A DNA stretch of 63,739 bases, filler included, from Halocafeteria seosinensis (taxonomy: Eukaryota), in NCBI GenBank assembly GCA_001687465.1. It is 6 parts of 6 records of this genome, joined end to end, with 100 filler letters (N's around TTAATTAATTAA, not from the genome) between each part and the next. Parts side by side here need not be neighbours in the genome. Positions count along the whole stretch, not along the records: positions 3,131 to 31,202 come from LVLI01000139.1; 5 more parts are not named here. One strand, 5' to 3'. A model generated the notes under the pieces. That model searched no databases, had not been told where the DNA came from, and was given only the letters and a program-made list of their open reading frames with translations. This document shows, piece by piece, positions 7,769-31,043 of this stretch; position 1 is the stretch's first letter; each line of letters opens with the position of its first letter. The translations under genes were made by a program, and so were the position numbers.

Positions 7769-7798
7769 GCCGAACATAATAATGACTTTGTTTCATTA

Positions 7799-8278: not shown

Positions 8279-8340
8279 TCTTCTATAATCTATACAAACA
8301 TTTTGTGGGAAGAGACCCGAAACAAACAACATAGGACAAC

Positions 8341-8673
8341 TTAGGATTCGCTTTCCTGATACCTCTGACAGATCTTGGTCTTCTGATGATTGGGCAAATA
8401 CCAACCGGACACCGTCCGACCACAATACTGACAGGTTTGACGTCCCTTCTGGTGATAATACGCCCGAATCTTTTCGGCGTTGGAATCGTAAATCCGATCC
8501 CGACGGGGTTTCCGATAGCCAAAGCGACACAAATGCGTTTTCTTATGGTTATAGATTTGCGAACGGGTGATCATCCGGCCACAGTTGGTACATTCCACTT
8601 TCTCTTTCAATTTGTCAAGCACTTTGCTCCGATTGCGTTGATACCATGATGGTTTCGTCTCTTGATCATCCAT
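8341..8673 (-). CDS. Small protein with two C2HC zinc fingers
   Basis: CTNCGRMITRSQIYNHKKTHLC and CQYCGRTVSGWYLPNHQKTKIC. Confidence 0.75.
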   Translation of the reverse strand: MDDQETKPSWYQRNRSKVLDKLKEKVECTNCGRMITRSQIYNHKKTHLCRFGYRKPRRDRIYDSNAEKIRAYYHQKGRQTCQYCGRTVSGWYLPNHQKTKICQRYQESES

Positions 8674-8746
8674 TTCAGCCTATATATCGGGTTAGAACAA
8701 AAAAATATTGAAATGACTTTCCTGTTTTCATTTCAATAGATGGCCT

Positions 8747-10546: not shown

Positions 10547-10589
10547 CTTTCTCTATATACACAGAGAAAAAAAATCCTATACATTTTCC

Positions 10590-11867
10590 TTAGCGTTCTT
10601 CCACCTCTTTGTTTTGGAAGACCAAACCTAGATGAGCCGTTGATTGGTTAGGTAGATCAAGAGGGAACAACTGAGACGTGAAGCGATCTCGATAGTAAAA
10701 CTGGACTCGGATTTCACGCAACGGTTTGTTATTGGTGCTCTGGATGGACAGAAACGTCCATTCATTGGCAATGAACAGCATATTCTGTTGCCATGCAGCC
10801 GGATTGCTCTTGTCAATGGTAAATTCACTGATGATATCTTGGCTATGATCTTTGGCCACTTGCCCCAAATTGCCATAGCGATTCTTGGAATACTCGATGG
10901 GTGCCGTCTGAAGCGTCGGAATGATATTCATGTTTTGTGATACCACGGCAATGGATTCCACCGGCGACCAATACCGTCCCAAGGCCGGAAACTCTTGGAT
11001 CATTTGGTAATAGGGCGGTGATGTTGTCTGCGGTGTTCCTCTCTTTGGGTTAATAAATTCTACATGGCGTCCAAATTGGGATCTGAATAGAATCTCAAAC
11101 TGGCCTTCGCCGTTTAGAATCGTATCCTTTTCCACATAACGCCATGGCAGATTGGAAAAGACATTGTACGTATTCTGGTCGAAATAGAGATTCCATTGTT
11201 CTGTAACATTGCCGTCAGTATTCTTCCTATTATTGCTATCGCCCCATCCGTTCAACGGAGCATAGCAAGTGATCCGGTTATTGATTGGGTCATAAGACAA
11301 AAACGGATGTTCTTGGGCTTCCAGTTTCGTTGAACCGCCCACCGCACTTCGTACGTTGTCAAACGCTGTTTGGATGGCCGAGTTAAACATTTCAACCACG
11401 TGGTCAATGGAGTAACACCGGTAAAATTCATCGCCGGTCTTGGTGGCGATGGGCTCTGCTACGTCGGTTCGTTGGGGAATAAACGGCACATTCACCGTTC
11501 GGGTGGTGGTTGTGGGAGTCCCTTGAAGATCTTGGGTCGTTTCCACCGTCACACGATAAATTCCCTCGGTGGCCGAATTCTGTGTGGTGTAAAAGTGAAA
11601 AATAGGCATGTTGGCCGTTGCCCCGTCCAATGAAAACTTCTTGACCGCTAATTTATAATCGCTAGGATTTTCCAAAATGGGCGTTTGGCTGGTTTCCAAA
11701 AACTCACAGGGTGGATTCTTACCATCAAACATGGTGCCTTGGGTTTCATGATTGATAATGGCTAGATCCACATAGATATAATTGGCTGGATCGCTTTCCT
11801 CTGTCTTCTCCGTGTTGTAATGATGGGTAAATGAGCCTTCTGAGGTATTGAATTTGACTTTCGGCAT
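10590..11867 (-). CDS. Virophage minor capsid protein (penton)
   Basis: YIYVDLAIIN...F.ETSQTPILENPSDYKLAVKKFSL...MPIF N-terminus and PLREIRVQFYYRDR C-terminus. Canonical penton-then-MCP gene order. Confidence 0.88.
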   Translation of the reverse strand: MPKVKFNTSEGSFTHHYNTEKTEESDPANYIYVDLAIINHETQGTMFDGKNPPCEFLETSQTPILENPSDYKLAVKKFSLDGATANMPIFHFYTTQNSATEGIYRVTVETTQDLQGTPTTTTRTVNVPFIPQRTDVAEPIATKTGDEFYRCYSIDHVVEMFNSAIQTAFDNVRSAVGGSTKLEAQEHPFLSYDPINNRITCYAPLNGWGDSNNRKNTDGNVTEQWNLYFDQNTYNVFSNLPWRYVEKDTILNGEGQFEILFRSQFGRHVEFINPKRGTPQTTSPPYYQMIQEFPALGRYWSPVESIAVVSQNMNIIPTLQTAPIEYSKNRYGNLGQVAKDHSQDIISEFTIDKSNPAAWQQNMLFIANEWTFLSIQSTNNKPLREIRVQFYYRDRFTSQLFPLDLPNQSTAHLGLVFQNKEVEER

Positions 11868-11952
11868 TCTATATACCTGTGATCAAAAAAATAGGAAGCC
11901 GAATACGACAGAGTTTTTTGACGTATTTTCAAAAAACTGACTCTATAGATAT

Positions 11953-12765
11953 ATGCCCAAACTCTATACCAGTTCAGAATTTGACCCCGAAGAGAGCGTT
12001 GCTGTCGTCAAAAAACTGGATAATAAGATGGACGTTCCCGATATGTTCGTCAATCTTCAACAGGAAGATCTAGAGAAGCCACCGGATAGTAAACAAGAAG
12101 CACAAGTTGACTTGAGTGGGGATTATTACTTTTCGGCTCTTCCACGAAAGATCAAAAAGAAATGGCCATTTTGTCTGTATATCGCCGGTAAGAAAGGGGC
12201 GGGGAAGACCACCCATATGGCCAATTGGGCGAATAATTATCACGTCTTGTGTCCCAAGAATTACATCTACATGATTTCAAGTAAAAAAGAAGATCCTACC
12301 ATTGAAAAGGAATTGGGCGAAGACAAACTGATCCGAATCCCCACGGAGAAATTCGGGGACGATAGCGACCATATCCCGACGATTGACGACTTCCAAAACT
12401 GTCTCGTCCTGTTCGATGATTTTGCTAGGGATCCGAATTCTCAAAGAATCATCCATTTTATGGAAGTCCTTGCCGAACGGGGGCGTCAGAAGAACATATC
12501 TCTGGTTACGGTTTGGCACCAAGTGAGCAGTTCCTTCAAGACGAAAATGATTCTTAATGAATGTGATTTTATCCTTATTTTCCCGAAATTGTTAAGTAAT
12601 CACAATCTACACTATTTTGGCAAATCATACTGTAATGTGGATGACAAGCGTCTGTTGAAGAAAATCAAGAACGATACCGGTTCGCATTGCCTTATTTGTA
12701 CGTGTCCCAAATACATCGTCACACCCCAATCGGTCTATTTGCCCGATTATATTTTTGATGACTAA
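11953..12765 (+). CDS. FtsK/HerA-family (A32-like) genome packaging ATPase
   Basis: Walker A YIAGKKGAGKT, Walker B LVLFDD, ERGRQ motif, VWHQ and KMILNE. Confidence 0.92.
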   Translation: MPKLYTSSEFDPEESVAVVKKLDNKMDVPDMFVNLQQEDLEKPPDSKQEAQVDLSGDYYFSALPRKIKKKWPFCLYIAGKKGAGKTTHMANWANNYHVLCPKNYIYMISSKKEDPTIEKELGEDKLIRIPTEKFGDDSDHIPTIDDFQNCLVLFDDFARDPNSQRIIHFMEVLAERGRQKNISLVTVWHQVSSSFKTKMILNECDFILIFPKLLSNHNLHYFGKSYCNVDDKRLLKKIKNDTGSHCLICTCPKYIVTPQSVYLPDYIFDD

Positions 12766-12810
12766 GAAAAAGAAAAAAATGATTGAGGTCTTATAGGGTT
12801 ACTCTTAGTT

Positions 12811-13752
12811 ATGCCAAAGAAAGCGATAGATTACTCCAACGGAATGATCTACAAATTGGTTTGTAAAGATCCAGCCATAGATCGTATTTATGTCGGTTCA
12901 ACCACCAATTTTAAGCATCGGAAATATCAACATAAACATCGTTCGGAAAACTACAACTGTCCGGTGTATGAATATATTGATAACCATGGTGGATGGGAAA
13001 ATTTTGATATGGTTCTTTTGGAAAATTACCCGTGTCAAAATGAACTTGAACTTCATGCCCGAGAGCGTTTGTGGGTGGAACACCTAGGTGCTTCCCTAAA
13101 TATTCAAGTTCCCACACAAGAAAGGAAGGATTATTTGGAACGTCACAAAGAATACTTCAACCAGAAAAAGAAAGAACATTATGAGGATAACAGAGAGTAC
13201 TACCGCCAACGCATGAAGGATAAACGGGAACAATTCCCCGAATACTATAAGCAGATTCAAGCCGAAAGCAGGGAGAGAAACCGAGAACGGTTGCGAGAAA
13301 GGCAAAAAGAATACTACGATACGAATCGTGACAAATTGCTTCAAAAGAGGAGGAAACAGTATCACAATAATTGGGAAGCCATTCGGGAGCAACGCAACCA
13401 AAAAGAATGGTGTGAGCCATGTCAGTGTTATATCAACATCACGTACATGTATGAACATAAGAAAACGGAAAAGCATATATTCAATGAGTATCCCGAGTAT
13501 GGGCGAGAGATAATCAATCAACGCAAAGAAGATCAGCGTCAAGATTATCTTGAAAAGCGACGTCAACATTATGTCGAACATCAGGACGAAATTCTTCGGA
13601 AAAAACGTGAATACCATCAAAAAAACCGAGACAAAATCCTCCAGAAACAATCAAAACGAATATATTGTGAAACTTGCGATTGCTACGTCCGAAGTTCCGA
13701 TTTTGCCAAACACAAACGAACCAAGAAACATATAAATAATGAAAGCAAGTAA
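12811..13752 (+). CDS. GIY-YIG endonuclease with charged repeats and two zinc fingers
   Basis: YSNGMIYKLVC...IYVGSTTN...RK..H...E, followed by KEYY-type repeats and CxxC...H.KT.KH fingers. Confidence 0.88.
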   Translation: MPKKAIDYSNGMIYKLVCKDPAIDRIYVGSTTNFKHRKYQHKHRSENYNCPVYEYIDNHGGWENFDMVLLENYPCQNELELHARERLWVEHLGASLNIQVPTQERKDYLERHKEYFNQKKKEHYEDNREYYRQRMKDKREQFPEYYKQIQAESRERNRERLRERQKEYYDTNRDKLLQKRRKQYHNNWEAIREQRNQKEWCEPCQCYINITYMYEHKKTEKHIFNEYPEYGREIINQRKEDQRQDYLEKRRQHYVEHQDEILRKKREYHQKNRDKILQKQSKRIYCETCDCYVRSSDFAKHKRTKKHINNESK

Positions 13753-13818
13753 CTACAGGAATTGTTAGCCTGTAGTTTAATTGACTTGAATTTAAAAAAG
13801 CGACGATATAGTGGTAAA

Positions 13819-14382
13819 TCAGCCCAAGATACGAATGCCACCAGATTTACCGGATCCCTTCTTGCGTTGGCCTTCGGGCACATACAAATCGTTATCTTTG
13901 ACAAATTTGGACGCCTGAGGCAAGGATAAACCCTTCTCATCCATCACTTGACGAACCAACTGACCACGGCTTTGACGGCCGTCTGAGCCTCCGCCGGATT
14001 GACCGGATCCCCATAAGCCCATCGTTCCTACGTTTGCTAGTTTGTTTCCGACTTTGCCAATGGATTTGGCCGTGCCTCCACCGGATTTACCTCCGCTTTG
14101 TCCTGAGCCCCATAGACCCAACGTGCCGACGTTGGCTAGTTTGTTTCCGACCTTCCCGATTGACTTTGCTGTCCCTGCACCGCTTTGACCTCCGCCATGA
14201 ACCAAGCCGTCTACAAAGCCGTCAAACCCCCCGCCTTTGAGTCCTTTGTCGGCTAACTGGCCGACTGCCTGCATAAAACTATCTTTCATATCATCGCCTT
14301 CCTGAGCGACACGATCAAGTACTTGTCCAAGCAATTTTTTGGCTTCGGCCTTAGACATCTTTCCGTTCTTTTTCTTTGGCAT
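13819..14382 (-). CDS. Gly/Lys-rich putative virion core protein with internal duplication
   Basis: Two copies of GTAKSIGKVGNKLANVGT(L/M)GLWGSGQSGG, many GG motifs, and a C-terminal RGQLVRQVMDEKGLSLPQASKFVK helical domain. Confidence 0.7.
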   Translation of the reverse strand: MPKKKNGKMSKAEAKKLLGQVLDRVAQEGDDMKDSFMQAVGQLADKGLKGGGFDGFVDGLVHGGGQSGAGTAKSIGKVGNKLANVGTLGLWGSGQSGGKSGGGTAKSIGKVGNKLANVGTMGLWGSGQSGGGSDGRQSRGQLVRQVMDEKGLSLPQASKFVKDNDLYVPEGQRKKGSGKSGGIRILG

Positions 14383-14413
14383 GTTCTATATATTGTCATA
14401 TAAAAAAATATGA

Positions 14414-15265
14414 TCATTCTATAAACTTGTTGGTTTGATTCGCCAACGCCTTCTGAATCTGATCACGCATCTGTATCAACGTATTGAGCGATGGCTGATC
14501 CAGCATCTTGATCATTTGATGTACCTTTTGACTGCTTAAACCGGTGGAAATATGCCATAGCATCTCTTTAAATCCAGCCAAGTCCGTCTGAAACCGCATA
14601 TTGCTTGTTGTCAGTTTGTGATTCTCCAACAGGTAAATCAACGACTCCAATCCTTCACGCATCTGATGTAAAATCCCCAGCAACGGTTGATTTAGGGTCG
14701 CTCGGATCTTCTTGTATTTGGATGGGTTGTTCTTGAGACGATAGAACGAATACCATCGCTTCAACGACTTGTATATTTCGCCCTCTCGTTTCAACTCTTC
14801 GGCTTCCTCTTTGATATTGGCCATCATGTCCTTCTTGGGTGTGCTCTGTTTGTAAAACAGCGTGTTGGTGAATTCATGGAACGATCCATTGGATGGCAAG
14901 AAGGCCAAGACATCAATCTTGAAAAAGACATCCTTGTGTTGGAGTTGGGACTTCAGCGTCAAGTCAGAGCCCTGTTTGCCCTTGATGATCTGCTCTTTTG
15001 ACCATCTTATTTTGTGATCCCCGATCTGTGTCTTGACGTCACCCAAATAGACCCCTTCCATCTTAGTGAGTTTTTTCACTTTTTGGGAAAACTCTCGGAC
15101 AATCCGATCCAGATTCAGATTATCCAAGTATTGATTGGCGTCGTAATCCATTGTGAAGTACAAATGAGGGTCGTTTTGCGATCCCGCCAAGTTCCAGTTC
15201 TTGCCAAAGGTGATGGTATCTAACACCAGTTTTTCATCTGTTGTTAGAAATTGCTTTCTCTGCAT
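14414..15265 (-). CDS. Putative Pol-beta-fold nucleotidyltransferase-like protein
   Basis: LAGS-x9-DYD matches the hG[GS]x(9-13)DhD signature, with a candidate third Asp in FFKIDVL. Confidence 0.55.
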   Translation of the reverse strand: MQRKQFLTTDEKLVLDTITFGKNWNLAGSQNDPHLYFTMDYDANQYLDNLNLDRIVREFSQKVKKLTKMEGVYLGDVKTQIGDHKIRWSKEQIIKGKQGSDLTLKSQLQHKDVFFKIDVLAFLPSNGSFHEFTNTLFYKQSTPKKDMMANIKEEAEELKREGEIYKSLKRWYSFYRLKNNPSKYKKIRATLNQPLLGILHQMREGLESLIYLLENHKLTTSNMRFQTDLAGFKEMLWHISTGLSSQKVHQMIKMLDQPSLNTLIQMRDQIQKALANQTNKFIE

Positions 15266-15275
15266 ACTACTATAT

Positions 15276-15434
15276 ATGACAAATCAATACTTTGTAATAA
15301 TGAAGCGGAATCGTCAAGGACATGACCCATTGTACAAGAAACTGATCACCCAAGCCGAATCCAAAGCACAGGCACGGCGATTTGCCACGCACCGGTTGCG
15401 TGGCTTCTCGGTCGTTCGTGTCGAAGAGGACTGA
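15276..15434 (+). CDS. 52-aa basic protein, paralog of 30560-30718
   Basis: MTNQYFVIMKRN...QARRFATHRLRGFSVVRVEED. Supported by similarity to the second copy. Confidence 0.7.
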   Translation: MTNQYFVIMKRNRQGHDPLYKKLITQAESKAQARRFATHRLRGFSVVRVEED

Positions 15435-15435
15435 A

Positions 15436-16602
15436 TCATTTTTTCTTCTTCTGTCGTTGAAGAAAATTATCCAACAAGACATTGAATTGTTTCCGTCCCA
15501 TGTCATTTCGTATTTGCGATTCGGGTTCTATGGTGGCTTCTTTTGGACTGAAATTCCGCCACTTGACTTTCAGGTATTTCTTGCCGTTCTTGGTGAATCT
15601 GTCCAGTATCCGTTCCACATCAAATTGGACGGTCACCCTGTCCTTGTTTTCCACTTTGTCTATCTTCTGAAGATTCCGGCGACCCCATAACCCACGGACT
15701 CTCTTGCCGGAGTCCTTCTCTTTCAGCCGATAGGCGATCGGCTTGGATTTCTCTTTTGGACGCTGGACGGCTGTGATTTCATACAACTCAAGCGAAAAGG
15801 TGATCGGTGTCTTCTGAAAGGTCTTGGGTGGCACCGCCGTTCTGACCGTATCCCCTTTCTCTAGGTTGTCATGATCGCCCTGAAGGTTCAGAATTCGCCG
15901 ACTAGCGTTGTTTTGTTTGACTTGCTCGGTATTTTTTTCTTTCAAAGCATCCTTGGGTGATACGCCCGTCGTATCGTGTTTCATCTCGTTATAGTTTTGA
16001 ACCAAATCATCCACCAACTTCTGGGTGATATTCTTGGACAGCATATCGGCCTTTCGTAACATTCGCTTGAATGTCCCGTTGAACCGTTCTACAATGGAAT
16101 TGGACTGGGGATTGCTTGGAATACTGAAGATCTGTTTGATGTCAAGTTTCTGGAGTTTCTGACGTAANGANCGGTTGGTAAATTCACCGCCATTATCGCT
16201 AAGGATGGTCTTGGGTTTCATTGGCATCTGTTTTAAGAGGCGATCAATCCCGTTGATCACTGTCCGTTGGTTCTTGTTTTTGATAATTCTTACGAAAGCC
16301 ATCCGGCTAAACACATCAATCATTACCAAGAACGTAAAGTCACCCATGGAGGCTAGATCCATAGCCACGACGTTGAAGGCGTCGTTGGATACCATGCTTC
16401 TTGTTCCTTTGCTACTGGGTGGGAGTCGCTTGGTGATCTGGTGGAGGTATTGGTTGGAAAGCCATTGCTCTAATTCATCCCGTCCCACCGGTATGTCTTT
16501 CTCTTGAACGATTTCAAAGAGTTTGTCCCTGCTGAAGAGATTGCCTTCGTCGTAAAACACCTTTTCCAATCGTTTCTTCAGGGATGGATTCGGTTCGTTC
16601 AT
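15436..16602 (-). CDS. Retroviral-type (rve, DDE) integrase with C-terminal chromodomain, Polinton/Mavirus-like
   Basis: AMDL (D), IDVFSR, SDNGGEF (D), SIVERFN (E); chromodomain FDVERILD...YLKVKWRNF....TIEP. Likely start MNEPN at 16602. Two N bases lie near 16168-16171. Confidence 0.92.
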   Translation of the reverse strand: MNEPNPSLKKRLEKVFYDEGNLFSRDKLFEIVQEKDIPVGRDELEQWLSNQYLHQITKRLPPSSKGTRSMVSNDAFNVVAMDLASMGDFTFLVMIDVFSRMAFVRIIKNKNQRTVINGIDRLLKQMPMKPKTILSDNGGEFTNXXLRQKLQKLDIKQIFSIPSNPQSNSIVERFNGTFKRMLRKADMLSKNITQKLVDDLVQNYNEMKHDTTGVSPKDALKEKNTEQVKQNNASRRILNLQGDHDNLEKGDTVRTAVPPKTFQKTPITFSLELYEITAVQRPKEKSKPIAYRLKEKDSGKRVRGLWGRRNLQKIDKVENKDRVTVQFDVERILDRFTKNGKKYLKVKWRNFSPKEATIEPESQIRNDMGRKQFNVLLDNFLQRQKKKK

Positions 16603-16669
16603 ATATATGTGGTTCAGACATTTTTCATATCCCCCCACCATAATAAATCGTACCTTTGAAGGAAGTTCG

Positions 16670-17034
16670 TATGACACTCTCTGTCATATCTGTGACGGTT
16701 TTGAAAATCGTACATTCATTTCTGTCATACCCCCTTATACCTCTATACAACCGTCAATCCTTGTGTTATAGTGCTTTGTTAAAAATCGTATGACACTTAT
16801 GACAGAAATGACAGAAATTTTCAGGGGTCGGTTGGTATTACTTATTAATAAAATTAATTTTTTAATTTTCTTAAAACCCAACCGGCTGAATCTGGGGTGT
16901 CATCTGTCATAAGTGTCATAAGTGTCATACGATTTTTAACAAAGTACAAATTTACTGGAATTGACGGTTGTATAGTGCTATGACACTTATGACAGAATTG
17001 AAAGTACGATTTTTGGAGGTAAAAAAGTGTCATA
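16670..17034. repeat. Large imperfect palindrome with 9-mer repeats and AT-rich core (putative replication origin)
   Basis: Inverted pairs 16774-16804/16914-16944 (31 bp perfect), 16743-16758/16960-16975 (16 bp perfect) and 16704-16729/16988-17013 (2 mismatches). Repeated TATGACACT/TATGACAGA in both orientations. Confidence 0.85.
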
Positions 17035-17092
17035 AGTTTTTCTTCATAAAGAAATTGACTTAAAAATAATTTGTGTCTATAGAATATAACCC

Positions 17093-17317
17093 ATGGGACG
17101 TCCAGTTAAAAATGAATACCAGTCGGTTCAGGAACAGCGTCGGGAATATTATCTAAAATGGAAAGAGAAAAACAACTACAAAGTGGATTGCCAATACTGT
17201 GGCCATCCAATCACCAAAGCCTTTCTTACGTCGCATCAGAAGAGATCCAAGAAATGCTTGTTGAAGCAAGAAATTTATCAACTGAAAGAACAACAAGAAG
17301 GGAACTTAGACGACTAA
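17093..17317 (+). CDS. Small C2HC zinc-finger protein
   Basis: CQYCGHPITKAFLTSHQKRSKKC, similar to the fingers of 8341-8673. Preceded by GAAATTGA and TCTATAG. Confidence 0.75.
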   Translation: MGRPVKNEYQSVQEQRREYYLKWKEKNNYKVDCQYCGHPITKAFLTSHQKRSKKCLLKQEIYQLKEQQEGNLDD

Positions 17318-17383
17318 GTTTAGAACATAACTGTATGTTGATTTTCGCCTAAAGATAAAACTGATAACCCTAGTATAGAAGAG

Positions 17384-20300
17384 ATGACCACCCAGACCCA
17401 CCAAGAACTAAAGGACTTTCTAGGCCAGTTTTACGTCAAAAAAGACCCAAAATCAAACCAAAAGTTTGAATGGACGCATACATCCCTCTGTAACCCGACA
17501 GGGAGTTATCTCATTCCGGAAGAAAAGTACCCCGAATTACATCGCTTGGTGGATCAACGAGCCTTTGGAGACCGGCAACCAACCTATTTGACCGAAAGAA
17601 ATAGGGAAACCAAAATTATTGTGGTGGATATTGATTTCAAATTCAATAGCGAGTATCAGGATCGCATGTATAACCAGCAACATGTGGAAAATATTGTCCA
17701 ACTGTACAACTGTGCCATCCGTCATGTGTTGGACATGGATTTTGACAAGCCTTTGAGTGCCTTTGTCATGGAAAAGCCGGATCCGACACCATCCTCAGGC
17801 AATATCAAAGACGGCTTCCATATCATCTATCCCTATGTCATCTGTGGCCGTCAAGCACAGCATAGGATCCGAGACTATGTCGTTGAACATTTCTTTGATA
17901 TTTTTTACCACGATCAGCAACACTTGCCGTTCAAAAACACGGTTCATGACGTGGTGGATAAAAAAGTTATATCTAGTAATCCTTGGACGATGTATGGCTG
18001 TTATTCCAAAGCGTCGGGCAGTAAATTTTACCAACTGACCCACATCTACCAACAGACATATGATACCGAAGAGGAAGAGTACCAATTAAGTCGCTTGAAT
18101 CCCGACAAATATACCTCCTTGGAACTGATCCAACTTTTCAGTATTCATCGCTACGACAAACAATATCATTATGAATGGCGAACCAGACCAGAAGAGGAAT
18201 CCGAAGAAGAGGAATCCGAAGACGAAGAGGAGGAGTTGTCGGAAGACCCAAGCGTTCAGAATAATGCGTTCTTGGACGAGAACGGCAAGATATCAGGGAT
18301 GGAATGTGGGCGAACGGATATCAAAGAGATGATGGAGAGGATTGAACAGGAAGATTTTTACGAACATTTGGATTTCAATGAATTCTATCAGGCGTTAGGC
18401 GAACCCCGTAATGAGGACAAGATCGTCAAGATGATGATCGCCACATCCAAAGACCCGAATTCAAATAATTTACAAGCCCTGATGAAAGTCATGGAGAGGA
18501 TTCAACGGAACTACAAAGAAATTCAGTATTATCAGCCGACGCCCCCAATCGGCCGGTTTTATTCACAGGGCAACCAATCCGTCGGGCTCTTACACCGAGG
18601 ATTCCGCCATGCCATTTGCCGAGAATCTAAGTACGATTTTGATATCATCAATTCCATGCCCACGATGTTTTATGAGTGGGCGAAGCGAGTCAATGTGACC
18701 ATTTGCCCCATCCTAGAACGGTATGTCCAAGAACCCAAAAATCTTCGCCGAGAGTATCAAGATCGGTTGGATTTCACCAAGGATCAGGTCAAAGAGTTGT
18801 TCATCATTCCGTTGTTTGGTGGCAATTTGGAGAATCATTTTACATCGGGGGATATTCCACGGGAATTCAAAGAGTATCAGAAGAACGTGGGGGAGATTGT
18901 CCGAGCCATCAAGAAACAGAATCCAAAAGATTGGGACAAGTACCGAAATATAATCCGTCAGAAACGGGAAAAGGAAGGAGTGAAGAAAAAAGTCACGGAC
19001 TATTCAGTGTTGAGTTACTTCTTACAAGAATTGGAAATCCGAGTGGTCGCTTTAACCCTGCTCTATTTTGAGAGGTGTGGTTTGCCGATGCGAAATGCGT
19101 CCATTAGTCACGATGGCTTTCTGTATCCCAAAGACAAACTGGATCAATATTTAATAAATCGTTGCTTAACCATTGATGAGTTTGCCCATGATGTCAGTGA
19201 ATATATCCGTTCGGAAACCCAAATGGAACTGGTAGAATTCATCAACAAGCCCATGGATGAAGGGATTCCGAGATACCAATCGTCCATTGATCCCCGCCGT
19301 AAGAAAACGTATGACGAGCGGAAGATTATTGAGCAAATTGAACGGATCATTGGCCGTTGCTGGAAAACCCACAGAGATCAGGCGATCACCGAACAGAAAG
19401 AGGAAATTAACAATGAATTGAAAAGCCAACAAGAAGAAAGAGACAGTCTAGATCAGGAATGTAAGAAGAAGATCAAGAAATGTAATGATAAAATCAAACA
19501 GTTGGAAAAAAGCATGGAAAACATTGAAAAATCCGAGAAAATCAAAGAGGTGGATAAGGAATTTGAACAGTATCAACAGATCTTGACGCTTCGCTTAATG
19601 GATACATTCTTCCGGCTTATTTCGGTCACGGGAGAGGTTCAACAATATTTTCCGGATCGTGGATATTACGGGGCAACCATTCAGCCCAATGATTTGCTCA
19701 AAAGTTATACCTATTTAGGCAAGAAGAACATTGAATACTGGAAAGCCCATGTCGGGTCACAGTATCGGGATGTTGATTTCTGGCCGTATCCGGACGACAA
19801 TGTCCAAGAAAACGACATCAATACCTTTGAAGGCTTCCGAGCGGAATGGACAACGCCGTTTTACTTGGTGGATATGAGTGACGACAAGCGAAAGAAATAC
19901 TATCAAGGATTACAACGCTTCCGAGATATTCTAGCCAATTTGGTGGGGTTTGATGAAGAGACCGACGACCCCAAATTGGACGAATGTCGGGGGTATGTTG
20001 AAAAATGGCTGAGCCATTGCCTACAACGCCCTTCTAAGAAGGAAGAATGTCTGAAGGCTCTTATTTTTCATGGTGGGCAAGGCACGGGTAAGAACTTGGT
20101 GTTTGAAGAGATTATGCGACGGATCATAGGGGACAAATATGCCACAACGCAATCCAAAATTGAAAATATCGTGGGGGAGTTTAACGAAGCATTGGAAAAC
20201 AAATTGCTTATCGTGGCAGATGAAATCACCGACAAGAAAGGACATGAAGCGTCGGGGCAACTGAAATCGTTGATTACAACATACAACAAGATCTGGATTA

Positions 20301-20905
20301 ATCGGAAATGTGGGGTACGGAAGCCGATGAATTTCTTTGGACGGTTTGTGTTTTGTTCCAATAGCGACAATCCGGTCAAGATTGAAGAAGGCGATCGCCG
20401 ATATGTGGATTTTGAAACCTCAAGGAAACATGCCGATGATACCGCCTTCTTTGCTCCGGTCACCGATTTGCTGGATGATCCGCTTTTTATTCGCCTGATT
20501 TATGATCACCTGACGTCCATTGACTTACGTGACTGTGATTTTAAGAAGGAAGCCCCCATTACAAATTCGTACAAGGCCAACAAACTGGCCAACGCATCCA
20601 TTATTGATAAATTCTTATTGGATCACTTTTTACCGAACTATGAGGGACAGGAAGAGGTTTTTATTAGTAATGACGGGCTGTTTGATGATCTTTCCGAATG
20701 GTATAAAAACCAATACCGGCGAGGGGAAAATCTTCCCCTGAGCAAAAGCAAAGTGACACGAGATCTGAAAAAAGTGGATGGCATTGAGATATATCGTTCT
20801 TCCAAAGAACGTGGGTTTAAATTTACTTATCAGCGAATTGAAAACACGCTAAGTCAGCGAGGATTCCTTGAAACGGATGTTCCCTTCCTTCTTGACGACG
20901 ATTGA
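17384..20905 (+). CDS. Replication protein: AEP primase + TVpol (PolA-like) domain + SF3 helicase
   Basis: AEP motifs VVDIDF, KDGFHIIYP, VVDKKV..NPWTMYG. TVpol-like GRFY, YDFDIINSMP, KELF..PLFGG, SYFLQELE, HDG. SF3 motifs GGQGTGKN, VADE, FCSN, GDRRY. Confidence 0.85.
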   Translation: MTTQTHQELKDFLGQFYVKKDPKSNQKFEWTHTSLCNPTGSYLIPEEKYPELHRLVDQRAFGDRQPTYLTERNRETKIIVVDIDFKFNSEYQDRMYNQQHVENIVQLYNCAIRHVLDMDFDKPLSAFVMEKPDPTPSSGNIKDGFHIIYPYVICGRQAQHRIRDYVVEHFFDIFYHDQQHLPFKNTVHDVVDKKVISSNPWTMYGCYSKASGSKFYQLTHIYQQTYDTEEEEYQLSRLNPDKYTSLELIQLFSIHRYDKQYHYEWRTRPEEESEEEESEDEEEELSEDPSVQNNAFLDENGKISGMECGRTDIKEMMERIEQEDFYEHLDFNEFYQALGEPRNEDKIVKMMIATSKDPNSNNLQALMKVMERIQRNYKEIQYYQPTPPIGRFYSQGNQSVGLLHRGFRHAICRESKYDFDIINSMPTMFYEWAKRVNVTICPILERYVQEPKNLRREYQDRLDFTKDQVKELFIIPLFGGNLENHFTSGDIPREFKEYQKNVGEIVRAIKKQNPKDWDKYRNIIRQKREKEGVKKKVTDYSVLSYFLQELEIRVVALTLLYFERCGLPMRNASISHDGFLYPKDKLDQYLINRCLTIDEFAHDVSEYIRSETQMELVEFINKPMDEGIPRYQSSIDPRRKKTYDERKIIEQIERIIGRCWKTHRDQAITEQKEEINNELKSQQEERDSLDQECKKKIKKCNDKIKQLEKSMENIEKSEKIKEVDKEFEQYQQILTLRLMDTFFRLISVTGEVQQYFPDRGYYGATIQPNDLLKSYTYLGKKNIEYWKAHVGSQYRDVDFWPYPDDNVQENDINTFEGFRAEWTTPFYLVDMSDDKRKKYYQGLQRFRDILANLVGFDEETDDPKLDECRGYVEKWLSHCLQRPSKKEECLKALIFHGGQGTGKNLVFEEIMRRIIGDKYATTQSKIENIVGEFNEALENKLLIVADEITDKKGHEASGQLKSLITTYNKIWINRKCGVRKPMNFFGRFVFCSNSDNPVKIEEGDRRYVDFETSRKHADDTAFFAPVTDLLDDPLFIRLIYDHLTSIDLRDCDFKKEAPITNSYKANKLANASIIDKFLLDHFLPNYEGQEEVFISNDGLFDDLSEWYKNQYRRGENLPLSKSKVTRDLKKVDGIEIYRSSKERGFKFTYQRIENTLSQRGFLETDVPFLLDDD

Positions 20906-20937
20906 TAATAATGATTTCATTTTCATTATTATTTCTT

Positions 20938-21597
20938 TTATCGTACCAACGAGATCCGTTCCCGTTCTTCACGAGGATACAGGTTCATCAGCCGGTTGAT
21001 ACAAGCGAACCTCCGGAATTCCCGTTCCTCTTTCGCCCCGAGTCGTTCGGTTTGGTAGTAATATTGCTTTTCGTATTGTTTGCTTCGGCTGATTCGCAAT
21101 GGGTGGGGACACACCCAAACCGGATAATAGCGGAAACAGGGCAATGGACACCGGCGAACCCGTTTTTCGTTCTCCTCAAAGATCCAATGGCCGAACAGGG
21201 GGCGTGTGTCCTTAAACGAGATGCTCTCCACTTCGTCACAGACTTTGTTTTGAAGGCAGAATTCAAGAGACAACGCTAATTTCTCTGTGTCTTCGTAATT
21301 CAAGTGGATATGGGGGAACATAAACCATAATCGGCTCTTATACCGGCTCATGTACAGCAATTGCTTGGTCTCCAAGAGGTCACACCGGATTTCCACGTGG
21401 TTATATATGCGTAAGAGCAAGTTATGGACGTCTTGCTTCTTGGGAATCTTGGTACAATGGACGACCAACCACAGAGGCATGATGTCGGTTGTCTCTGGGT
21501 CGTATTGCTCATAGATACACTGTTTGCCGTTCCATGCTTGTTCACAGGCGTCTTGGCTCATGGTTACCGCTATTTCATTATCTAACAGATGGGACAT
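20938..21597 (-). CDS. Hypothetical protein, possibly an inactivated AEP-fold paralog
   Basis: 219 aa with a GATATAGAAGA leader. LWFMFPHI and RPLFGH resemble AEP FHIIYPY and WTMYG. Confidence 0.55.
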   Translation of the reverse strand: MSHLLDNEIAVTMSQDACEQAWNGKQCIYEQYDPETTDIMPLWLVVHCTKIPKKQDVHNLLLRIYNHVEIRCDLLETKQLLYMSRYKSRLWFMFPHIHLNYEDTEKLALSLEFCLQNKVCDEVESISFKDTRPLFGHWIFEENEKRVRRCPLPCFRYYPVWVCPHPLRISRSKQYEKQYYYQTERLGAKEEREFRRFACINRLMNLYPREERERISLVR

Positions 21598-21649
21598 TCT
21601 TCTATATCCCCTGACGGAAAAAATTTCTGAATGTCATTGATATAGAATC

Positions 21650-22528
21650 ATGGACGAAGCGTTGCGTGGAGTGTTTGATCAAATCAGCGAATCGGCCAAA
21701 GCCAAGAAAGAGCGGAAGCAAGAGAGAAACCAGACAGCAGATATCTCAGACACCGGTTTTGATACGACGCAAGAAAGCAAACCACGAGTCTGTAAGAGTC
21801 CGAATGCCTCCACCTTTTTCCAAGTCGCCCAAGCATCGTATCAAAAACCGAAGGAACGCCCTCAGATTATCAACCAATGGTGGGCGAAGGTACAAGGGTT
21901 TCAGACGCCAACCTTTACCGCCTATGAAGACCGGCAAAATGATGTCTATTTGATCGGGTATCGGGGCACCGTGGTTCAATCGGTCACCGACTTGACGGCG
22001 GATCGTCGGATCATGTTCAATCGGTTAAACGAATCCGACCGGTACCAGAAAGATCTACGAACCACGTCTAAATTCTTGGAACGGTTTGGCCGAGGCGAAT
22101 GTATTTTCACGGTCGGCCATTCACTAGGTGGAGCGGTACAACTTCAGATCCAACGGGATTTAGACCACTTTGCCAAAGGCGGTCGTGGATTCAATTCTGC
22201 GTTACAACCAAAAGATCTGGTACGCCGTCCCAAAAACTACGAGTTTTGGTTTATAGCAGGGGATCCTTTATATTCCCTCTCTGGACGCTTTTTGAAGAAA
22301 AATTTGTTCGTCTTCCCTCAGGTATCGAAAAAAGCATTACAAAATCACAGCCTTGAGAATTTCAAGGGACTGAAGAAGACCGACGCCACCAACAAGAAAC
22401 GGGGTGGTGGCCGACGGAAACCCAATTTGGATGATTTGGTCAAGTTGGGACTCATTACCAAGAGTGATAAGCAACAGATTAACAATGATCCGTGGAAATT
22501 GGTGGAGATATTCAAGCAGGGACAGTGA
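21650..22528 (+). CDS. Class 3 lipase-like alpha/beta hydrolase
   Basis: IGYRGT...DLTAD, nucleophile elbow VGHSLGG, GDP (Asp) and NHSL (His). Confidence 0.9.
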   Translation: MDEALRGVFDQISESAKAKKERKQERNQTADISDTGFDTTQESKPRVCKSPNASTFFQVAQASYQKPKERPQIINQWWAKVQGFQTPTFTAYEDRQNDVYLIGYRGTVVQSVTDLTADRRIMFNRLNESDRYQKDLRTTSKFLERFGRGECIFTVGHSLGGAVQLQIQRDLDHFAKGGRGFNSALQPKDLVRRPKNYEFWFIAGDPLYSLSGRFLKKNLFVFPQVSKKALQNHSLENFKGLKKTDATNKKRGGGRRKPNLDDLVKLGLITKSDKQQINNDPWKLVEIFKQGQ

Positions 22529-22558
22529 ATTATTTTTGCCGTTGGGATATAGAAGAAT

Positions 22559-25003
22559 ATGGCAGTTAGTTCAATCATCAATCGGAACACGGCGAAAATT
22601 TATGAACATCTCATTCCCGACATATCAGCGGGGGCGTCGTTGTCGTCCGTCACGGTGGCGTCGTCCAGTATGTCGCAAGATATCAAAGACAACGCCGACT
22701 ATACCTGTGATGGAACGGATGATCAAGAGGAAATTCAACAAGCCATCAATCAGGTCAATAATGAAGGTGGTGGCCAAGTCCAACTAAGCGGAGGGACATT
22801 TTCGGTTAATACACAGGAGGGGCAATCCTACGCCATTCAGATGCTCCATGGTGTCCGTTTGCGTGGTGAAGGACGAGGAACGACTACCATTCAGAAAGAC
22901 CAACAGGATGATGGCAGTCCTCAAGATATTTTCCTCATGGGCAATGACAGCAGTATGTCTATTACCGGATTGACGGTGGATGGTGTGGGATTAAACTATA
23001 CCAATTCTTGTATCGAAGTGTCGCAATCGCATAAGAGTTCGGTCATTGATGTGGAATGTACCAATGGGATTACCGGTTTGCTTGTCCAAGGAACATATGA
23101 GTTTGCCTTTAGTCACTTGTTTTTTTCGAAGCACGACCAACAATCCATGTTCGTTGGCAATCAAGTGGGAAGTGGAAACAATATTGATGGATCCGACCAA
23201 TACTCCCCCATTATTCGGGACGTCCATATAAATGAGAATGAAGACGTGGATATGGGCAATGGCAATTTCCCCAACCCCAATCAGGGGATACGAATCAAAG
23301 GGCGGAATATCCAAGTATCCGATGTATTTATCGCAGGGTGTCAAAAATTTGGAATTTGGATTCAGGGCAAACGCAACTTGGTGAGCAATATCCGAGGCCG
23401 TAAGATCGGGGACAAAACCATTTACGTCGATGGATCGCAATCCGGAGATGATATTTGTGAATTTCATCGAGTGGAAAATATCAACGCCACCGAATGCCAA
23501 GGGGATGTTCTTATCCTGAATGAATGCCGACACTGTTCGATCGAAAATGGCTATCTTATGGACTGTGGCTATACCAATCAACAGACGACCCCCCGAAAAT
23601 TTCCGATGAAAATTACTGGGTCAAGTGGCAACATGGCGAATAATAATACACTTCGAAATATCGGAGTCTATCAAGATACCAAGACATATGACTATGGTTC
23701 GACAATATCGTATTTTATATCATTAAATCAATACTCTCAGGATTCGACGGTGGATGGGATTTACATGGATGCCAACGTACGTGGCAACGTATCCGCATCG
23801 CCAATTGATGTGGGGATTCGATTGGACAAAACACGAAATAATTCAATTGGAAACATTGAAGTCAAAAACGTCTCTAAAAGGGGCATAGTATCAATTAACG
23901 GAAAACAAAATAAATTTAATAATCTTACCTTTGAAAATATCGGGGATGGATCATCTGGTCAGAATGCCATGGAATTGGATGGGGAACAAAACGTGACTGT
24001 GGATGGTTTTGCCTTGAATTCCACCTGCTACCGTGCCATATTTGTCCGTAAAGCAACGGGCAGTTCCAATGTTCCCCATGGAGTGAATATCTCGAACGTC
24101 AATATTACTAATTCGGACAGTTTGGGGCTAGACATCCAAAAATGTACCGGCATGATCTTATCGGGAATCCATTATCGTGGAAACGGCAACAGCAGTTCAA
24201 AGGTTATTTCCATTGATAACAGTACGAAAATTAATTTGACCAATCTCATCTTCAACAATATTCAATCGGGGATTTCCATCAGCAATACGGCACAAGATAT
24301 TTTGGTCTCGGGGCTTCAGATCAATCTTTGTCAAGGCGATGCGTTTGAAATCAATGGAGGGCAAAAGGTTTCACTGAGTCATTATTATTTCGACACGGTA
24401 CAATCAAGGGATATCTATGTCCATGGCGATAGCGACATGCTACAGATCACCAATGGGATCAGTTGGCAGAATGGCTTGGATAACCCGACCGAGGGAATTG
24501 TCCAAATCGCCCCATCACAGGTACAAAATGATTTAACTATGGATAATATCCAAATCCTCCGACCTCAGGGAACGGCTCAGCCGACATGTGCCTGTTTTCA
24601 AATCGGAACGAGTGCTTCATCGGATACCTTTGTACGAACGCAAATGAGCAATCTGAAATGTGCCCGTTTGCAAGATGGCCACCGTGCTATGGAGATTTTA
24701 GGCGTCCCCAATTTCCGATTGGTCAACTGTTTCTGGAACTTCCTGACCCAAGACAATGCCGTTGATGGCAAAGTCCGAATTATAGGCTGTCATGATTTCC
24801 TCATGAGCGGATGTATCATGGATATTGATGGATCAGGAACTCATTTCAATAATGGGAATGCTTTATTCATTGAAAACGATAGTGGTGGTCAAGCCCAAAG
24901 AGTCACTTTGACGCAAAACAATATCACGCAAAATAGTGGGGATAATAGCGTCAAAGTGAATACGAGTAACTCTAAACTGGCCAACAATATTGCCAATTTC
25001 TAA
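22559..25003 (+). CDS. Right-handed beta-helix (pectate-lyase-like) fibre/spike protein
   Basis: ADYTCDGTDDQEEIQQAIN...GGQVQLSGGTF...GEGRGTT cap followed by ~700 aa of Asn/Ile-rich parallel beta-helix repeats. Confidence 0.85.
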   Translation: MAVSSIINRNTAKIYEHLIPDISAGASLSSVTVASSSMSQDIKDNADYTCDGTDDQEEIQQAINQVNNEGGGQVQLSGGTFSVNTQEGQSYAIQMLHGVRLRGEGRGTTTIQKDQQDDGSPQDIFLMGNDSSMSITGLTVDGVGLNYTNSCIEVSQSHKSSVIDVECTNGITGLLVQGTYEFAFSHLFFSKHDQQSMFVGNQVGSGNNIDGSDQYSPIIRDVHINENEDVDMGNGNFPNPNQGIRIKGRNIQVSDVFIAGCQKFGIWIQGKRNLVSNIRGRKIGDKTIYVDGSQSGDDICEFHRVENINATECQGDVLILNECRHCSIENGYLMDCGYTNQQTTPRKFPMKITGSSGNMANNNTLRNIGVYQDTKTYDYGSTISYFISLNQYSQDSTVDGIYMDANVRGNVSASPIDVGIRLDKTRNNSIGNIEVKNVSKRGIVSINGKQNKFNNLTFENIGDGSSGQNAMELDGEQNVTVDGFALNSTCYRAIFVRKATGSSNVPHGVNISNVNITNSDSLGLDIQKCTGMILSGIHYRGNGNSSSKVISIDNSTKINLTNLIFNNIQSGISISNTAQDILVSGLQINLCQGDAFEINGGQKVSLSHYYFDTVQSRDIYVHGDSDMLQITNGISWQNGLDNPTEGIVQIAPSQVQNDLTMDNIQILRPQGTAQPTCACFQIGTSASSDTFVRTQMSNLKCARLQDGHRAMEILGVPNFRLVNCFWNFLTQDNAVDGKVRIIGCHDFLMSGCIMDIDGSGTHFNNGNALFIENDSGGQAQRVTLTQNNITQNSGDNSVKVNTSNSKLANNIANF

Positions 25004-25046
25004 TGGATACTCAGAATAATAATCTTTCGGAGATTATTATATAGAG

Positions 25047-28000
25047 ATGTCATCACTTCTGACAACGGAAGCCAAAGATTGGGCAAGATATCAGGCCAAC
25101 GCTCATGTGAATATGGGCACCTATCGCCTAGAGAACGTCGGCAATCCAACCAGTTTGGGTCACGTGGCCAGTAAGAGTTATGTGGATACCCGTGCCAGTA
25201 TTCCCCAAATGCTTCAGGGGGCTCGTGCCTATTATTCCTTTGATGACCCGTCGGATTCCTACAATGATTCCATCGGAACGTACGATGGGACGCCGTCCGG
25301 TATCGTGACCATTACCAGCGATGGCAAGATTGCCAACGCCTTTGAAATGGCCGGAACGGAACACTTGAAAGTCGGCGACGCCTTCCATTTCGGTTCCAAT
25401 GATTTTACGATTTCCTTTTGGTATTATCCGACGCAATTGAACAGCAACCAGACGTTGATCCATCAAGGCGATTCGTCCAACCAGTTTTCCATTTACCATA
25501 ATGCCAGTAATTCCCAAATCACATTATTCACGGACGATGGATCCACGGCCAATCTGTCGACCAATTCGTCCTTCGGGACGTTGAACCAATGGTATCATAT
25601 TGTGGTGGTACGAAGCGGGGGTGGAACAGGCCAAATTTATGTCAATGGGACGTTAGAGATTGGGGGATCAGCGGTACGCCCCGGTTCCATTAGTACATCG
25701 GACAGTGGAACCATTGGATTTGATGGGGGAGAAACCTACGCCCGTGTGGATGAAGTCGGGGCTTGGGATCGTATGTTGGGCTCGGATGAAGTGGAGTATT
25801 TGTACAATAATGGCAATGGTACCAATGATTTCCACAAATTTGGCTGGTATTCCTTTCCGGCTCAGCAAGATATCAATTTGAATCAGAATCGGATTACCAA
25901 TCTGGCCGAACCGTCGGCGTCGGGGGATGCCTCGACCAAAGGATACGTCGATACACGGGCTTCTATACCCCAGTTACGGCAAGGAGCACGGGCTTATTAC
26001 TCATTTGAAGGTACCTATGAAGATTCCATTGGGACGCATGATGGATCGGCGAATGGTTCTTTGTCATTTACGCCGGGTAAATTAGGACAGGCCGTTCAAT
26101 TTACCGGAACCAATAACGAATATGTGGATTTGGGAGCGTCCGCCTTGGATCATGGGACAGGTGATTTTACATGGTCATTCTGGTTCAACACCAATGACAA
26201 TACCAAATCCCAAATGTTTATCACGGCTCAAAGGAACAGCAATGATCTTATTTATATTTATTTGACAGCCGGAAATATTAGATTTAAAGCAAAAGATGGT
26301 GGGAGTCCTTCGGATCTAAATACAAGTTTTAGTCCAGCGAATAATACATGGTATTTTGTGACAGCCACCCGAACAGGGTCGTCGGCTGAGGTATTTATTG
26401 ATGGAGTAAGTGATGTCTCAGGCACGTTACCCGCTTCCGACCTGACCGGAAATAAATCTTGGATCGGTGAATTCACCGAATCCAACCTGCCAATGGATGG
26501 TGAAATTGACGAAGTTGGCATCTGGAATCGTGTTTTATCCCCTGAGGAAATTCGTTATCTGTACAACGGAGGCAACGGGACGCAAGATTTTGCCACCTTT
26601 GATTGGTATAGTCGACCGGCTCAATCCACCGTCCATATGAATGGCCATCGGTTGGCGAATGTTGGGACACCAACAGAGAGTACCGATGCCGTGACCAAGA
26701 ATTATACCGACTCATTGGCCGGAATTTCCCAACTTCGGCGTGGGGCTCGTGCCTATTATTCATTTGATGGAACGGATTCCTATGCCGATTCCATCGGGAC
26801 ACATGATGGGACAAATAATGGAACCTCTGTTGTGTCCGGAAAGATTGGAAATGGGATTGAATTTTCTGTCAGTGGAAGTGATACCGTGAATCTGGGAAAA
26901 TCCCTAGATACAGGAACGGGTGATTTTTCCGCTTCAGTATGGATTAAATCGGATTCTGGGGCATCCGAAGGTGATGGTAATGCTGTGATTGNTCAAAATG
27001 TAAGCGGAACTAAGCGATGGATTTTAGAACACTGGCAGAATGGTACATTTCAACTTTACACAGAAGATAGTAACAATAACAAAAGAATCATATCTTCGGC
27101 AAATTACTCTTTTGGCAATTGGTATTTTGTCACTATTACCCGTTCGGGATCGCAAGGAAAAATTTACGTTAATGGTCAATTGGATATTTCAGACACAATA
27201 CAATCAGGTGATATTTCAGGCGGTGGTGATACCAAACTTGGAAGACCTAGTTCTGGTAAAGAAATGGAAGGAATATTAGATGAAATCGGTTGTTGGAATC
27301 GTGTCCTGTCCCTTGAAGAAATCAAATATCTTTACAATAATGGAGCTGGAACTAACGATTTCCAATCTTTTGATTGGTATAGTCGTCCCGCACAAAGTGC
27401 TGTGGATATGAACAGTAACCAAATTAATAATCTTTCTGACCCTACTTCAACCCAAGATGCTGTTTCTCGTAACTACCTAGAAGCTGGTAATATGGCTAAT
27501 GCCATTGATATGAATTCTAAACAAATCAATAATCTTAGTGATCCTACTAGTGCTCAAGATGCTGTTTCCAGAAATTATTTAGAAGTTGGTAATATGGCTA
27601 ATGCTCTGGATATGAATTCCAAACAAATTAATAACTTATCCTCAGCCACTTCTGGAACAGATGCTATTAACCGAAATGATGGTGATGGTAGATTTCTCCG
27701 AAGGGATGGTAACAACACTATGGACGGCACTTTATCTTTCTCAACTGGAAATTCTATTACACTGAATGATACAGCTATGAATGCTGGTTCTAATCAAATC
27801 AACAGTCTCAGTGATCCAACTAGTGCTCAAGATGCTGTCACCCGAAACTATCTAGAAGCTGGAAATATGGCTAATCCTCTAGCTATGAATGATAATGAAG
27901 TTGTAGGAGTAGCAGGGATAACTACTAATACATTAAGTATCAGTGACGATAGTGTTAAATCTCATTCACCGGTTAACAATCAAGGTGTCTTTCTTGCTCG

Positions 28001-28223: not shown

Positions 28224-28287
28224 TTTTAAAACTTAGAAAATGATTAAATAAATTTTAGGTAAAAATTATTTAGTATTTATATAGGAA

Positions 28288-29799: not shown

Positions 29800-29821
29800 A
29801 ATCTGAGCTTAATATTATAGA

Positions 29822-29983: not shown

Positions 29984-30011
29984 TTTAAATCTCTAAATAT
30001 AAGAGATTTAA

Positions 30012-30718: not shown

Positions 30719-30724
30719 CCTATA

Positions 30725-31006: not shown

Positions 31007-31043
31007 TGTTTTATATTACTTATTATTTTTAAAAATATAAAAA

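Follow-up and report, generated by a model that had tools for sequence, protein, structure and literature searches.

A replicase gene combining AEP, TVpol and SF3 helicase domains in a virophage element of Halocafeteria seosinensis

Domain composition of the replicase

The window analyzed here, a stretch of 63,739 nucleotides from the Halocafeteria seosinensis genome (GCA_001687465.1), includes a virophage contig of 28,072 bases (3131..31202) that lies between two 100-base assembly spacers and encodes a large replicase with the domain order AEP-TVpol-SF3. The replicase gene (17384..20905, + strand) is a single open frame of 1173 amino acids, as described in an original prediction made from the DNA alone, which had proposed two polymerase folds and a helicase in one chain; it has no internal stop codon and no N. 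By homology, the protein is composed of a D5-type AEP catalytic domain, an acidic linker and a whole TVpol-helicase. A Pfam search with the 1173-aa protein returned AEP_C962R (residues 31-222) and DUF5906 (residues 895-1006) and nothing specific in between, and the AEP, TVpol and helicase domains are alike in composition (GC 0.43, 0.44 and 0.43; GC at third codon positions, GC3, 0.50, 0.53 and 0.48, respectively). Seven proteins of the window have no identical entry in an exact-sequence collection.

The AEP catalytic domain, of the D5/C962R type, extends over residues 1-262 (17384..18169, +) and is defined by PF23162 (AEP_C962R; residues 31-222, E 9.7e-45, 153 bits vs. a cut-off of 23) and by conservation among 22 relatives. 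The N-terminus scores 218 bits against an AEP profile of these relatives from which the query was left out, and the active site is kept in comparison with them (D82 and D84 at 17627-17635, H146, D192 and Y204); in a weak alignment these residues correspond to the active site of C962R, as named in PMC10516667. The family match and the catalytic residues bear out the originally proposed N-terminal D5-type AEP of nucleocytoplasmic large DNA viruses (NCLDV). As PriCT-2 and D5_N are lacking, the term primase is used here as a family label, and priming activity is presumed. The six full-length AEP relatives are all D5-type proteins, the best three of which (metagenomic D5 proteins) are 31-41% identical, and one AEP relative (locus L081) adjoins an NCLDV major capsid gene. 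PriCT_2 and D5_N, both present in six of these six proteins, gave no Pfam match at E<=1 in the 1173-aa protein, in which only a linker lies between the AEP end (residue 262) and the start of TVpol (about residue 311). The AEP domain is of D5 type, but the whole protein is not a D5.

Three further candidates were rejected. An apparent match in locus L086 reaching residue 332 has a tail that reads, by eye, as the start of PriCT-2 and gave no TVpol-profile match, and two open reading frames (ORFs; 20938-21597 and 4508-5206) that looked by eye like decayed AEPs were unsupported by profiles. As a separate observation, locus L096 (a 624-kb contig) has a 303-aa frame (3974-4882) that carries only a D5-type AEP and closely precedes a 927-aa frame (5377-8157) with a second AEP; a free-standing AEP gene like this one could represent the type of source from which the fusion arose.

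The middle domain is TVpol, a family A polymerase domain devoid of exonuclease, at residues 311-625 (18314..19258, +), as its relatives, its predicted structure and Foldseek matches together indicate. The original prediction had placed a second polymerase-like block at 18550-19240; all the motifs it named are in place (GRFY starting at 18551, YDFDIINSMP at 18632, KELF at 18791, PLFGG at 18809, SYFLQELE at 19013 and SHDG at 19106), but the domain is larger, about 18314-19258, because the thumb is N-terminal to GRFY. It is invisible to sequence searches of Pfam, PHROGs, NCBIfam and PDB, and tblastn of phages and plasmids gave no match. A phmmer search with residues 351-639 against 1.84 billion representatives found 725 proteins at E<=0.001, including 35 at E<=1e-10. 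The best 150 of these 725, with 23-32% identity, were analyzed as TVpol relatives. Most of them are 700-950 aa long and match near their N-terminus, 54 of the 121 with at least 650 aa also match the helicase of the replicase at E<1e-5, and some of the 30 that were scanned carry D5_N or SF2 helicases. Against a profile of the 150 relatives, with the query left out, residues 346-643 score 212 bits, and all columns conserved in at least 93% of the relatives are kept (G390, R391, R408, D418, D420, N423, P426, Y447, K470, E551, D577, G578 and K622).

Folding of the middle domain from its single sequence was uninformative (pLDDT 42.7), whereas an AlphaFold2 model based on a 96-sequence alignment (95 relatives) reached pLDDT 92.1 and pTM 0.89. 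Foldseek found 107 matches to this model in PDB at E<=0.001, and all 46 of the matches listed are family A polymerases; in BFVD the named top matches include the replication protein of Zamilon (E 5.6e-14, TM 0.67) and, from the Qinghai Lake virophage, a helicase/primase/polymerase (E 1.5e-11). Superposition on Klenow with VIA-align gave Z 14.1 and an rmsd (root mean square deviation) of 4.2 over 282 aligned residues, covering model residues 1-313. The PolA-like character first suspected for this block is therefore matched by a predicted PolA palm fold.

According to Iyer 2008 (PMC2579912), TV-Pol is defined by a thumb, an Arg-bearing hairpin, palm Asp residues, RxxxK and a conserved Asp in the fingers, absence of an exonuclease and a C-terminal D5-like helicase. 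The replicase has predicted antiparallel thumb helices (residues 344-354 and 361-372), the invariant beta-hairpin arginine (R391, an Arg in all 147 of the relatives aligned), and the metal-binding palm aspartates D420 (150/150) and D577 (99% of 145), plus D418. In the fingers the RxxxK motif is found with a common substitution as K466-x3-K470 (K470 in 150/150), and the Arg that the family has near the conserved fingers Asp is Pro451 here. An exonuclease domain is absent and a D5-like helicase lies C-terminal.

The SF3 helicase module occupies residues 781-1173 (19724..20902, +) and is defined by a DUF5906 match (residues 895-1006, E 2.8e-21), by matches to PDB entries 6k9e and 6k9c (E 4e-10) and by collinearity with TVpol-SF3 helicase (TVpol-S3H) proteins. 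All SF3 motifs, named here in part after PMC10516667, are present: Walker A at 897-904 (GGQGTGKN, 20072-20095, where the original prediction had it starting at 20072), Walker B at 944-947, motif C at 990-993 and the Arg finger at 1005-1006. The C-terminal part of the module is probably a winged helix. Pox_D5 and RFX matches were found in the relatives P0015 and P0140 and none in the replicase itself. The helicase belongs with TVpol and not with the AEP, because residues 311-1173 form a complete TVpol-helicase, collinear over its full length with five TVpol-S3H proteins of the ordinary kind, and because the helicase module (residues 781-1173) has no match in any of the six D5-type AEP relatives.

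Two connecting stretches complete the chain. The acidic linker expected behind the AEP is seen at about residues 268-290 (18185..18253, +), and the region from residue 260 to 345, considered for cleavage by the viral protease, has no Gly-Gly. The coiled coil that had been placed before the helicase remains a predicted coiled-coil-like spacer at about residues 641-735 (19304..19588, +), with weak Pfam matches of coiled-coil type only. The distance from polymerase motif C to Walker A is 321 aa, compared to a median of 246.5 and a maximum of 403 in 16 relatives.

Continuity and rarity of the fusion

Contigs of a public run, X1, which may be the source sample and contains 67% of the sampled words, were compared with the gene. 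All 42 X1 records on 17950-19700 match over their whole length, without joints or loose ends, and among them are some that cross the AEP end (18054-18207), the linker (18181-18289, as two alleles) and the linker-TVpol junction (18260-18840). Support across the linker, which had been suggested as a check on the fusion, is thus found in contigs, not raw reads, that are unbroken over the junctions. Substitutions and an in-frame deletion of 3 bases distinguish the two linker alleles, both of which keep the frame. At 90% identity, runs X2 and X3 have little or no sequence from the replicase gene.

A chimeric assembly, joining an AEP gene to a TVpol-helicase gene that belongs to another copy or another element, would fit the polymorphism of this element, on 6.3 kb of which 414 short X1 contigs were found, as well as the facts that the span from AEP to TVpol is not in any single X1 contig, that neighbouring contigs overlap by just 27-30 bases and that X1, which consists of contigs and not raw reads, may be the source sample. 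We nevertheless consider such a chimera highly improbable, given the wholly fitting records, the bridging of the AEP end, the linker and the linker-TVpol junction, and an open frame maintained across 3.5 kb; moreover, X1 departs from the window at so many places that it is not the same consensus.

The X1 differences also bear on constraint. Of these, 41 were classed, namely all 29 on 17950-19700 and 12 other in-gene differences among the 40 listed of 223; the silent expectation assumes that all base changes are equally likely, which tilts slightly toward significance. Silent variants make up 12 of 16 in TVpol (expected share 0.20, p 4e-6), 7 of 8 on the helicase side, 6 of 11 in the AEP (p 0.01) and 3 of 6 in the linker, and for AEP residues 1-188 the share is 5 of 6 among the variants listed.

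The D5-type AEP profile matched none of the best 150 of 725 TVpol proteins; in 148 of them the TVpol match begins after fewer than 200 residues, and the longer extensions of the other two give no AEP-profile match. At 176 fetched loci (at least four of them duplicates), for which the best 80 of 489 and the best 80 of 145 confirmed candidates were kept, 121 have TVpol, 16 have a D5-type AEP and none has both, and none of the 125 TVpol frames at these loci has room for 200 residues in front. The nearest Atlas clusters are proteins of 730-780 aa with no AEP families. Word-based searches among proteins of 645-2053 aa gave two matches for the whole protein, none for the middle domain and five for the AEP, without any triple fusion; pattern scans with single proteins turned up nothing closely related to the replicase or the capsid, and a genome-contig search found no AEP relative. 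The triple fusion is rare. Its uniqueness is not established, because the AEP profile represents the D5 type only, the scans used short patterns and the relatives were the best 150 of 725. In the literature searched, an AEP-PolA-SF3 chain was not found; Figure 5D and the supplements of Barth 2026 (bioRxiv 10.64898/2026.10.13.758929), which lie outside that search, may show it.

The virophage contig and its origin-like element

Between the replicase gene and a divergently transcribed rve integrase with a chromodomain (15436..16641, -; PF00665 E 1.1e-13, PF00385 E 3.2e-9) lies an origin-like element (16667..17037) with 13 ATGACA copies in both orientations, a nested palindrome and an AT core. 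Judged by the remainder of the contig, 0.25 copies would be expected in 371 bases, against the 13 present. The palindrome folds with z -15.5, its arms being 16737-16815 and 16903-16981, and the core (16841-16878) is 89% AT. The replicase starts 350 bases past this element, the layout of which is as expected of an iteron origin and makes it a candidate origin. Contigs of runs X1-X3 with flanking sequence diverge at the edges of the origin-replicase block (X1 at 16644-16735, X2 at 16830 and 16928, X2 and X3 at 20937-20942); in related elements a different replication module may occupy the place of this block.

Capsid genes place the contig among the virophages. A Sputnik-type major capsid protein (8747..10546, -; PF21915 E 4.6e-16, PF22031 E 3.1e-13) and a Sputnik-type minor capsid protein (10590..11867, -; PF21507 E 2.5e-8) were found above the cut-offs, and the replicase itself provides the SF3 helicase. 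A cysteine protease candidate (30012..30563, +) matches ORFs in four viral loci (best E 5e-22) and has no Pfam or PDB match; we take it to be the probable maturation protease from a His-Asp-Cys pattern read by eye. A P-loop ATPase (11953..12765, +; AAA_14 E 1e-3), with ORF matches in six viral loci (best E 1e-16), is presumably, from its context, the packaging ATPase. Zinc-ribbon candidates at 8341, 12811 and 17093 have weak or no family matches and match unannotated viral-locus ORFs; the last of these is a zinc-finger-like ORF of 74 aa with CxxC (17093..17317, +) just upstream of the replicase, with weak matches only. Virophages are described as sharing six genes, including capsids, packaging ATPase, cysteine protease, zinc ribbon and SF3 helicase (PMC3671162). 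No PolB match or DTD motif was found in any of the nine frames of at least 300 aa on this possibly incomplete contig, in agreement with the original view of an element that has no pPolB.

The contig also encodes GIY-YIG genes, a hydrolase and large beta-helix and LamG proteins. An 814-aa beta-helix protein (22559-25003, +) and a 1058-aa protein with three LamG domains and tail-fibre-like repeats (25047-28223, +) are candidate virion fibres. A 283-aa ORF (14414-15265, -) with weak matches in four viral loci and no family match has a GS...DxD pattern that resembles that of a nucleotidyltransferase. The ORF at 6767-7768 (+), without a family match, looks tyrosine-recombinase-like from motifs read by eye, and occurs in the same element as the rve-chromodomain integrase. 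A pairing of tyrosine recombinase and rve integrase has been reported in some endogenous virophages (bioRxiv 10.64898/2026.07.28.741278). Over the final 3 kb of the contig (28288-31202), where the probable protease lies, the GC content drops from about 44% to 34%; the element may be a mosaic, or two element types may have been joined.

No terminal repeats were found in 3131-31202 (no end-to-end match of more than 16 bases), and the contig ends at assembly spacers. The 100-base N spacers with a central TTAATTAATTAA join at 3031-3130, 31203-31302, 49150-49249, 57373-57472 and 61317-61416 separate contigs, so that adjacency across them is meaningless. The other contigs of the window encode Ric8, F-box/LRR, PRP38 and RNase H-like ORFs; as Ric8, F-box/LRR and PRP38 are eukaryotic genes, the 28-kb virophage element is likely to be endogenous. 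One of these contigs has an inverted repeat with 682-base arms (57473-58154 and 59757-60438), 95% complementary and 1.6 kb apart, possibly a non-autonomous DNA transposon.

Possible division of labour in the replicase

TVpol and AEP are described as replacing each other on the helicase in an either-or manner (PMC2579912, PMC11071308, PMC3671162, bioRxiv 10.64898/2026.06.19.733378), and the starting assumption that virophages pair SF3 with TVpol or with an AEP agrees with the picture in PMC11071308 and PMC3671162. Compared to the TVpol(PolA)-S3H proteins of Sputnik (V13), Zamilon, Organic Lake and Qinghai Lake virophages and of polinton-like viruses (PMC2579912, PMC3671162, PMC11071308), residues 311-1173 have the same order, collinear throughout, with the same fold, no exonuclease and all near-invariant residues kept, whereas the 260-aa AEP and the acidic linker in front are extra. 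The NCLDV D5 proteins, e.g. African swine fever virus C962R (AEP-PriCT2-D5_N-SF3; PMC10516667), have an AEP that shares its Pfam family and catalytic residues with the one found here, but the replicase is without PriCT-2 and D5_N and has an SF3 helicase of a different lineage. In the endogenous virophages described from H. seosinensis (bioRxiv 10.64898/2026.07.28.741278) both polymerase types occur, pPolB is not needed, and rve integrase and tyrosine recombinase are present; their D5 and PolA-S3H are separate genes with a helicase each, in contrast to the one chain with one helicase found here. Barth 2026 likewise describes PolA or AEP fused to a helicase, with domains often swapped, two replicase genes in some genomes and, now and then, a D5 homologue captured from a giant virus.

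Single chains that unite primase, polymerase and helicase are known with other parts. GP55 of Lactococcus phage 1706 combines a helicase, an AEP and PolB and, as described in PMC12205980, has separate active sites for priming and extension; it differs in being from a bacteriophage, with an exonuclease-bearing PolB, the helicase first and a helical accessory domain. Pas55 of Actinoplanes phage phiAsp2 (SF3, DnaG and PolA; PMC4889955) also has three enzymes in one chain, again in a bacteriophage and with DnaG. The apicoplast polyprotein joins a full PolA, mostly with exonuclease, to a TOPRIM primase and a helicase; in the bacterial Hot Spring 1 cluster, AEP-PolA fusions join a primase to a full, mostly exonuclease-bearing PolA, with no helicase mentioned in the description given (both PMC10201439). 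Neither comes from a eukaryotic virus. The original remark that no description of the architecture was known holds for the part set of AEP, TVpol and SF3, which was not found in the relatives and literature searched, but not for the idea of a one-chain primase-polymerase-helicase, which is in print (PMC4889955, PMC12205980, PMC10201439).

The reading that we favour, at about even odds, is that the AEP and TVpol-SF3 parts together serve as a replisome in one chain: the helicase would unwind, the AEP prime and TVpol extend. The SF3 ring would load at the palindromic repeat 16667-17037 upstream of the gene and unwind 3'-5', ring assembly and polarity being borrowed from C962R (PMC10516667); the AEP would then make primers and TVpol would extend them. 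Historically, a TVpol-S3H gene would have captured from the D5 gene of a giant virus nothing but the catalytic domain, a direction suggested by the similarities of the AEP and the helicase, and the captured AEP would free the virophage from priming by a helper virus or host. CCPol of SCCmec, the only TV-Pol tested by 2020 according to PMC7581432, extends RNA and DNA primers, works with a separate helicase and primes only with its small non-catalytic partner MP, so that the AEP could supply what a lone TVpol may lack; the AEP of poxvirus E5 is active in isolation (PMC11196578), and GP55, in which a one-chain division of labour works (PMC12205980), may serve as a model. The original idea of a self-contained primase-polymerase-helicase stands as far as the anatomy of the three domains is concerned, but the AEP comes without PriCT-2 and D5_N and the helicase is from the TVpol side.

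Several points speak against this one-chain replisome. Behind the AEP of the replicase PriCT-2 is missing, and helical accessory domains are required for priming in GP55 and other AEPs (PMC12205980); PMC6648351 deals with a different AEP family. The Lys after the YG motif, found in 21 of 21 AEP relatives, sits one residue later here, and just one of the five variants in AEP residues 189-260 (all variants there) is silent. For the isolated C962R AEP primer extension was shown, with no de novo assay reported in the account consulted (PMC10516667). TVpol itself was predicted to prime (Iyer 2008, PMC2579912), and ordinary TVpol-S3H virophages replicate without an AEP. In TVpol, P451 departs from the consensus (R in 136 and P in 7 of 150 relatives), M425 is rare (M in 4/150) and K466 stands where R is found in 85 and K in 45 of 150. 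Finally, a second example of the fusion was not found in any set searched.

It is rather unlikely, in our estimate, that the AEP, lacking PriCT-2, serves as a second polymerase that fills gaps, bypasses lesions or repairs the ends left by integration and excision, with TVpol both priming and extending. The absence of PriCT_2 and the predicted prim-pol nature of TVpol (PMC2579912) would suit such a role, the isolated C962R AEP, which extends primers with dNTPs, was assigned to repair (PMC10516667), and the rve integrase of the contig would leave gaps. CCPol, however, is without priming when alone (PMC7581432), the isolated poxvirus E5 AEP extends RNA primers well without its neighbouring zinc domain, with de novo synthesis deduced from bound pyrophosphate (PMC11196578), and a repair polymerase has no need to be tethered to a helicase. 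Quite unlikely, to our mind, is a passing stage of domain swapping, in which an AEP landed in frame before TVpol-S3H, the two polymerase domains are redundant and one of them is to be lost. The single occurrence among the best 150 of 725 TVpol proteins and 121 TVpol loci would be expected from such a stage, as would the weaker constraint at AEP residues 189-260; domain swapping is common in such viruses (Barth 2026), and separate D5 and PolA-S3H genes in some endogenous virophages have been read as transient (bioRxiv 10.64898/2026.07.28.741278). Such a stage is harder to reconcile with an AEP that is about 40% identical at most to its nearest relatives and keeps all catalytic residues, with GC and GC3 alike among domains, with two linker alleles that are both in frame, and with the 5 of 6 silent variants, among those listed, at AEP residues 1-188.

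Returning to the one-chain replisome, we suggest tentatively, and with less than even confidence, that a virophage lineage has stably captured a giant-virus primase domain and would thereby be the first eukaryotic virus to have an AEP-PolA-SF3 replisome in one chain, next to an iteron origin of its own; the AEP would prime in the absence of PriCT-2 and pass the primers on to TVpol. The weight of this is limited by the single known case and by the three-enzyme replicases already known in phages. If true, TVpol would be an extender in need of outside priming, contrary to the 2008 prediction of primase replacement, a claim that rests on TVpol replacing AEPs on SF3 helicases (PMC2579912); with both active sites on one helicase, the replicase is an exception to that rule of replacement. 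It would also record the flow of a single domain from a giant-virus D5 gene to a virophage, in the direction suggested above, and is a compact candidate for primer-free strand-displacement synthesis. Moreover, it offers a ready test of which site primes and which extends, and hence of how Sputnik-type virophages start replication.

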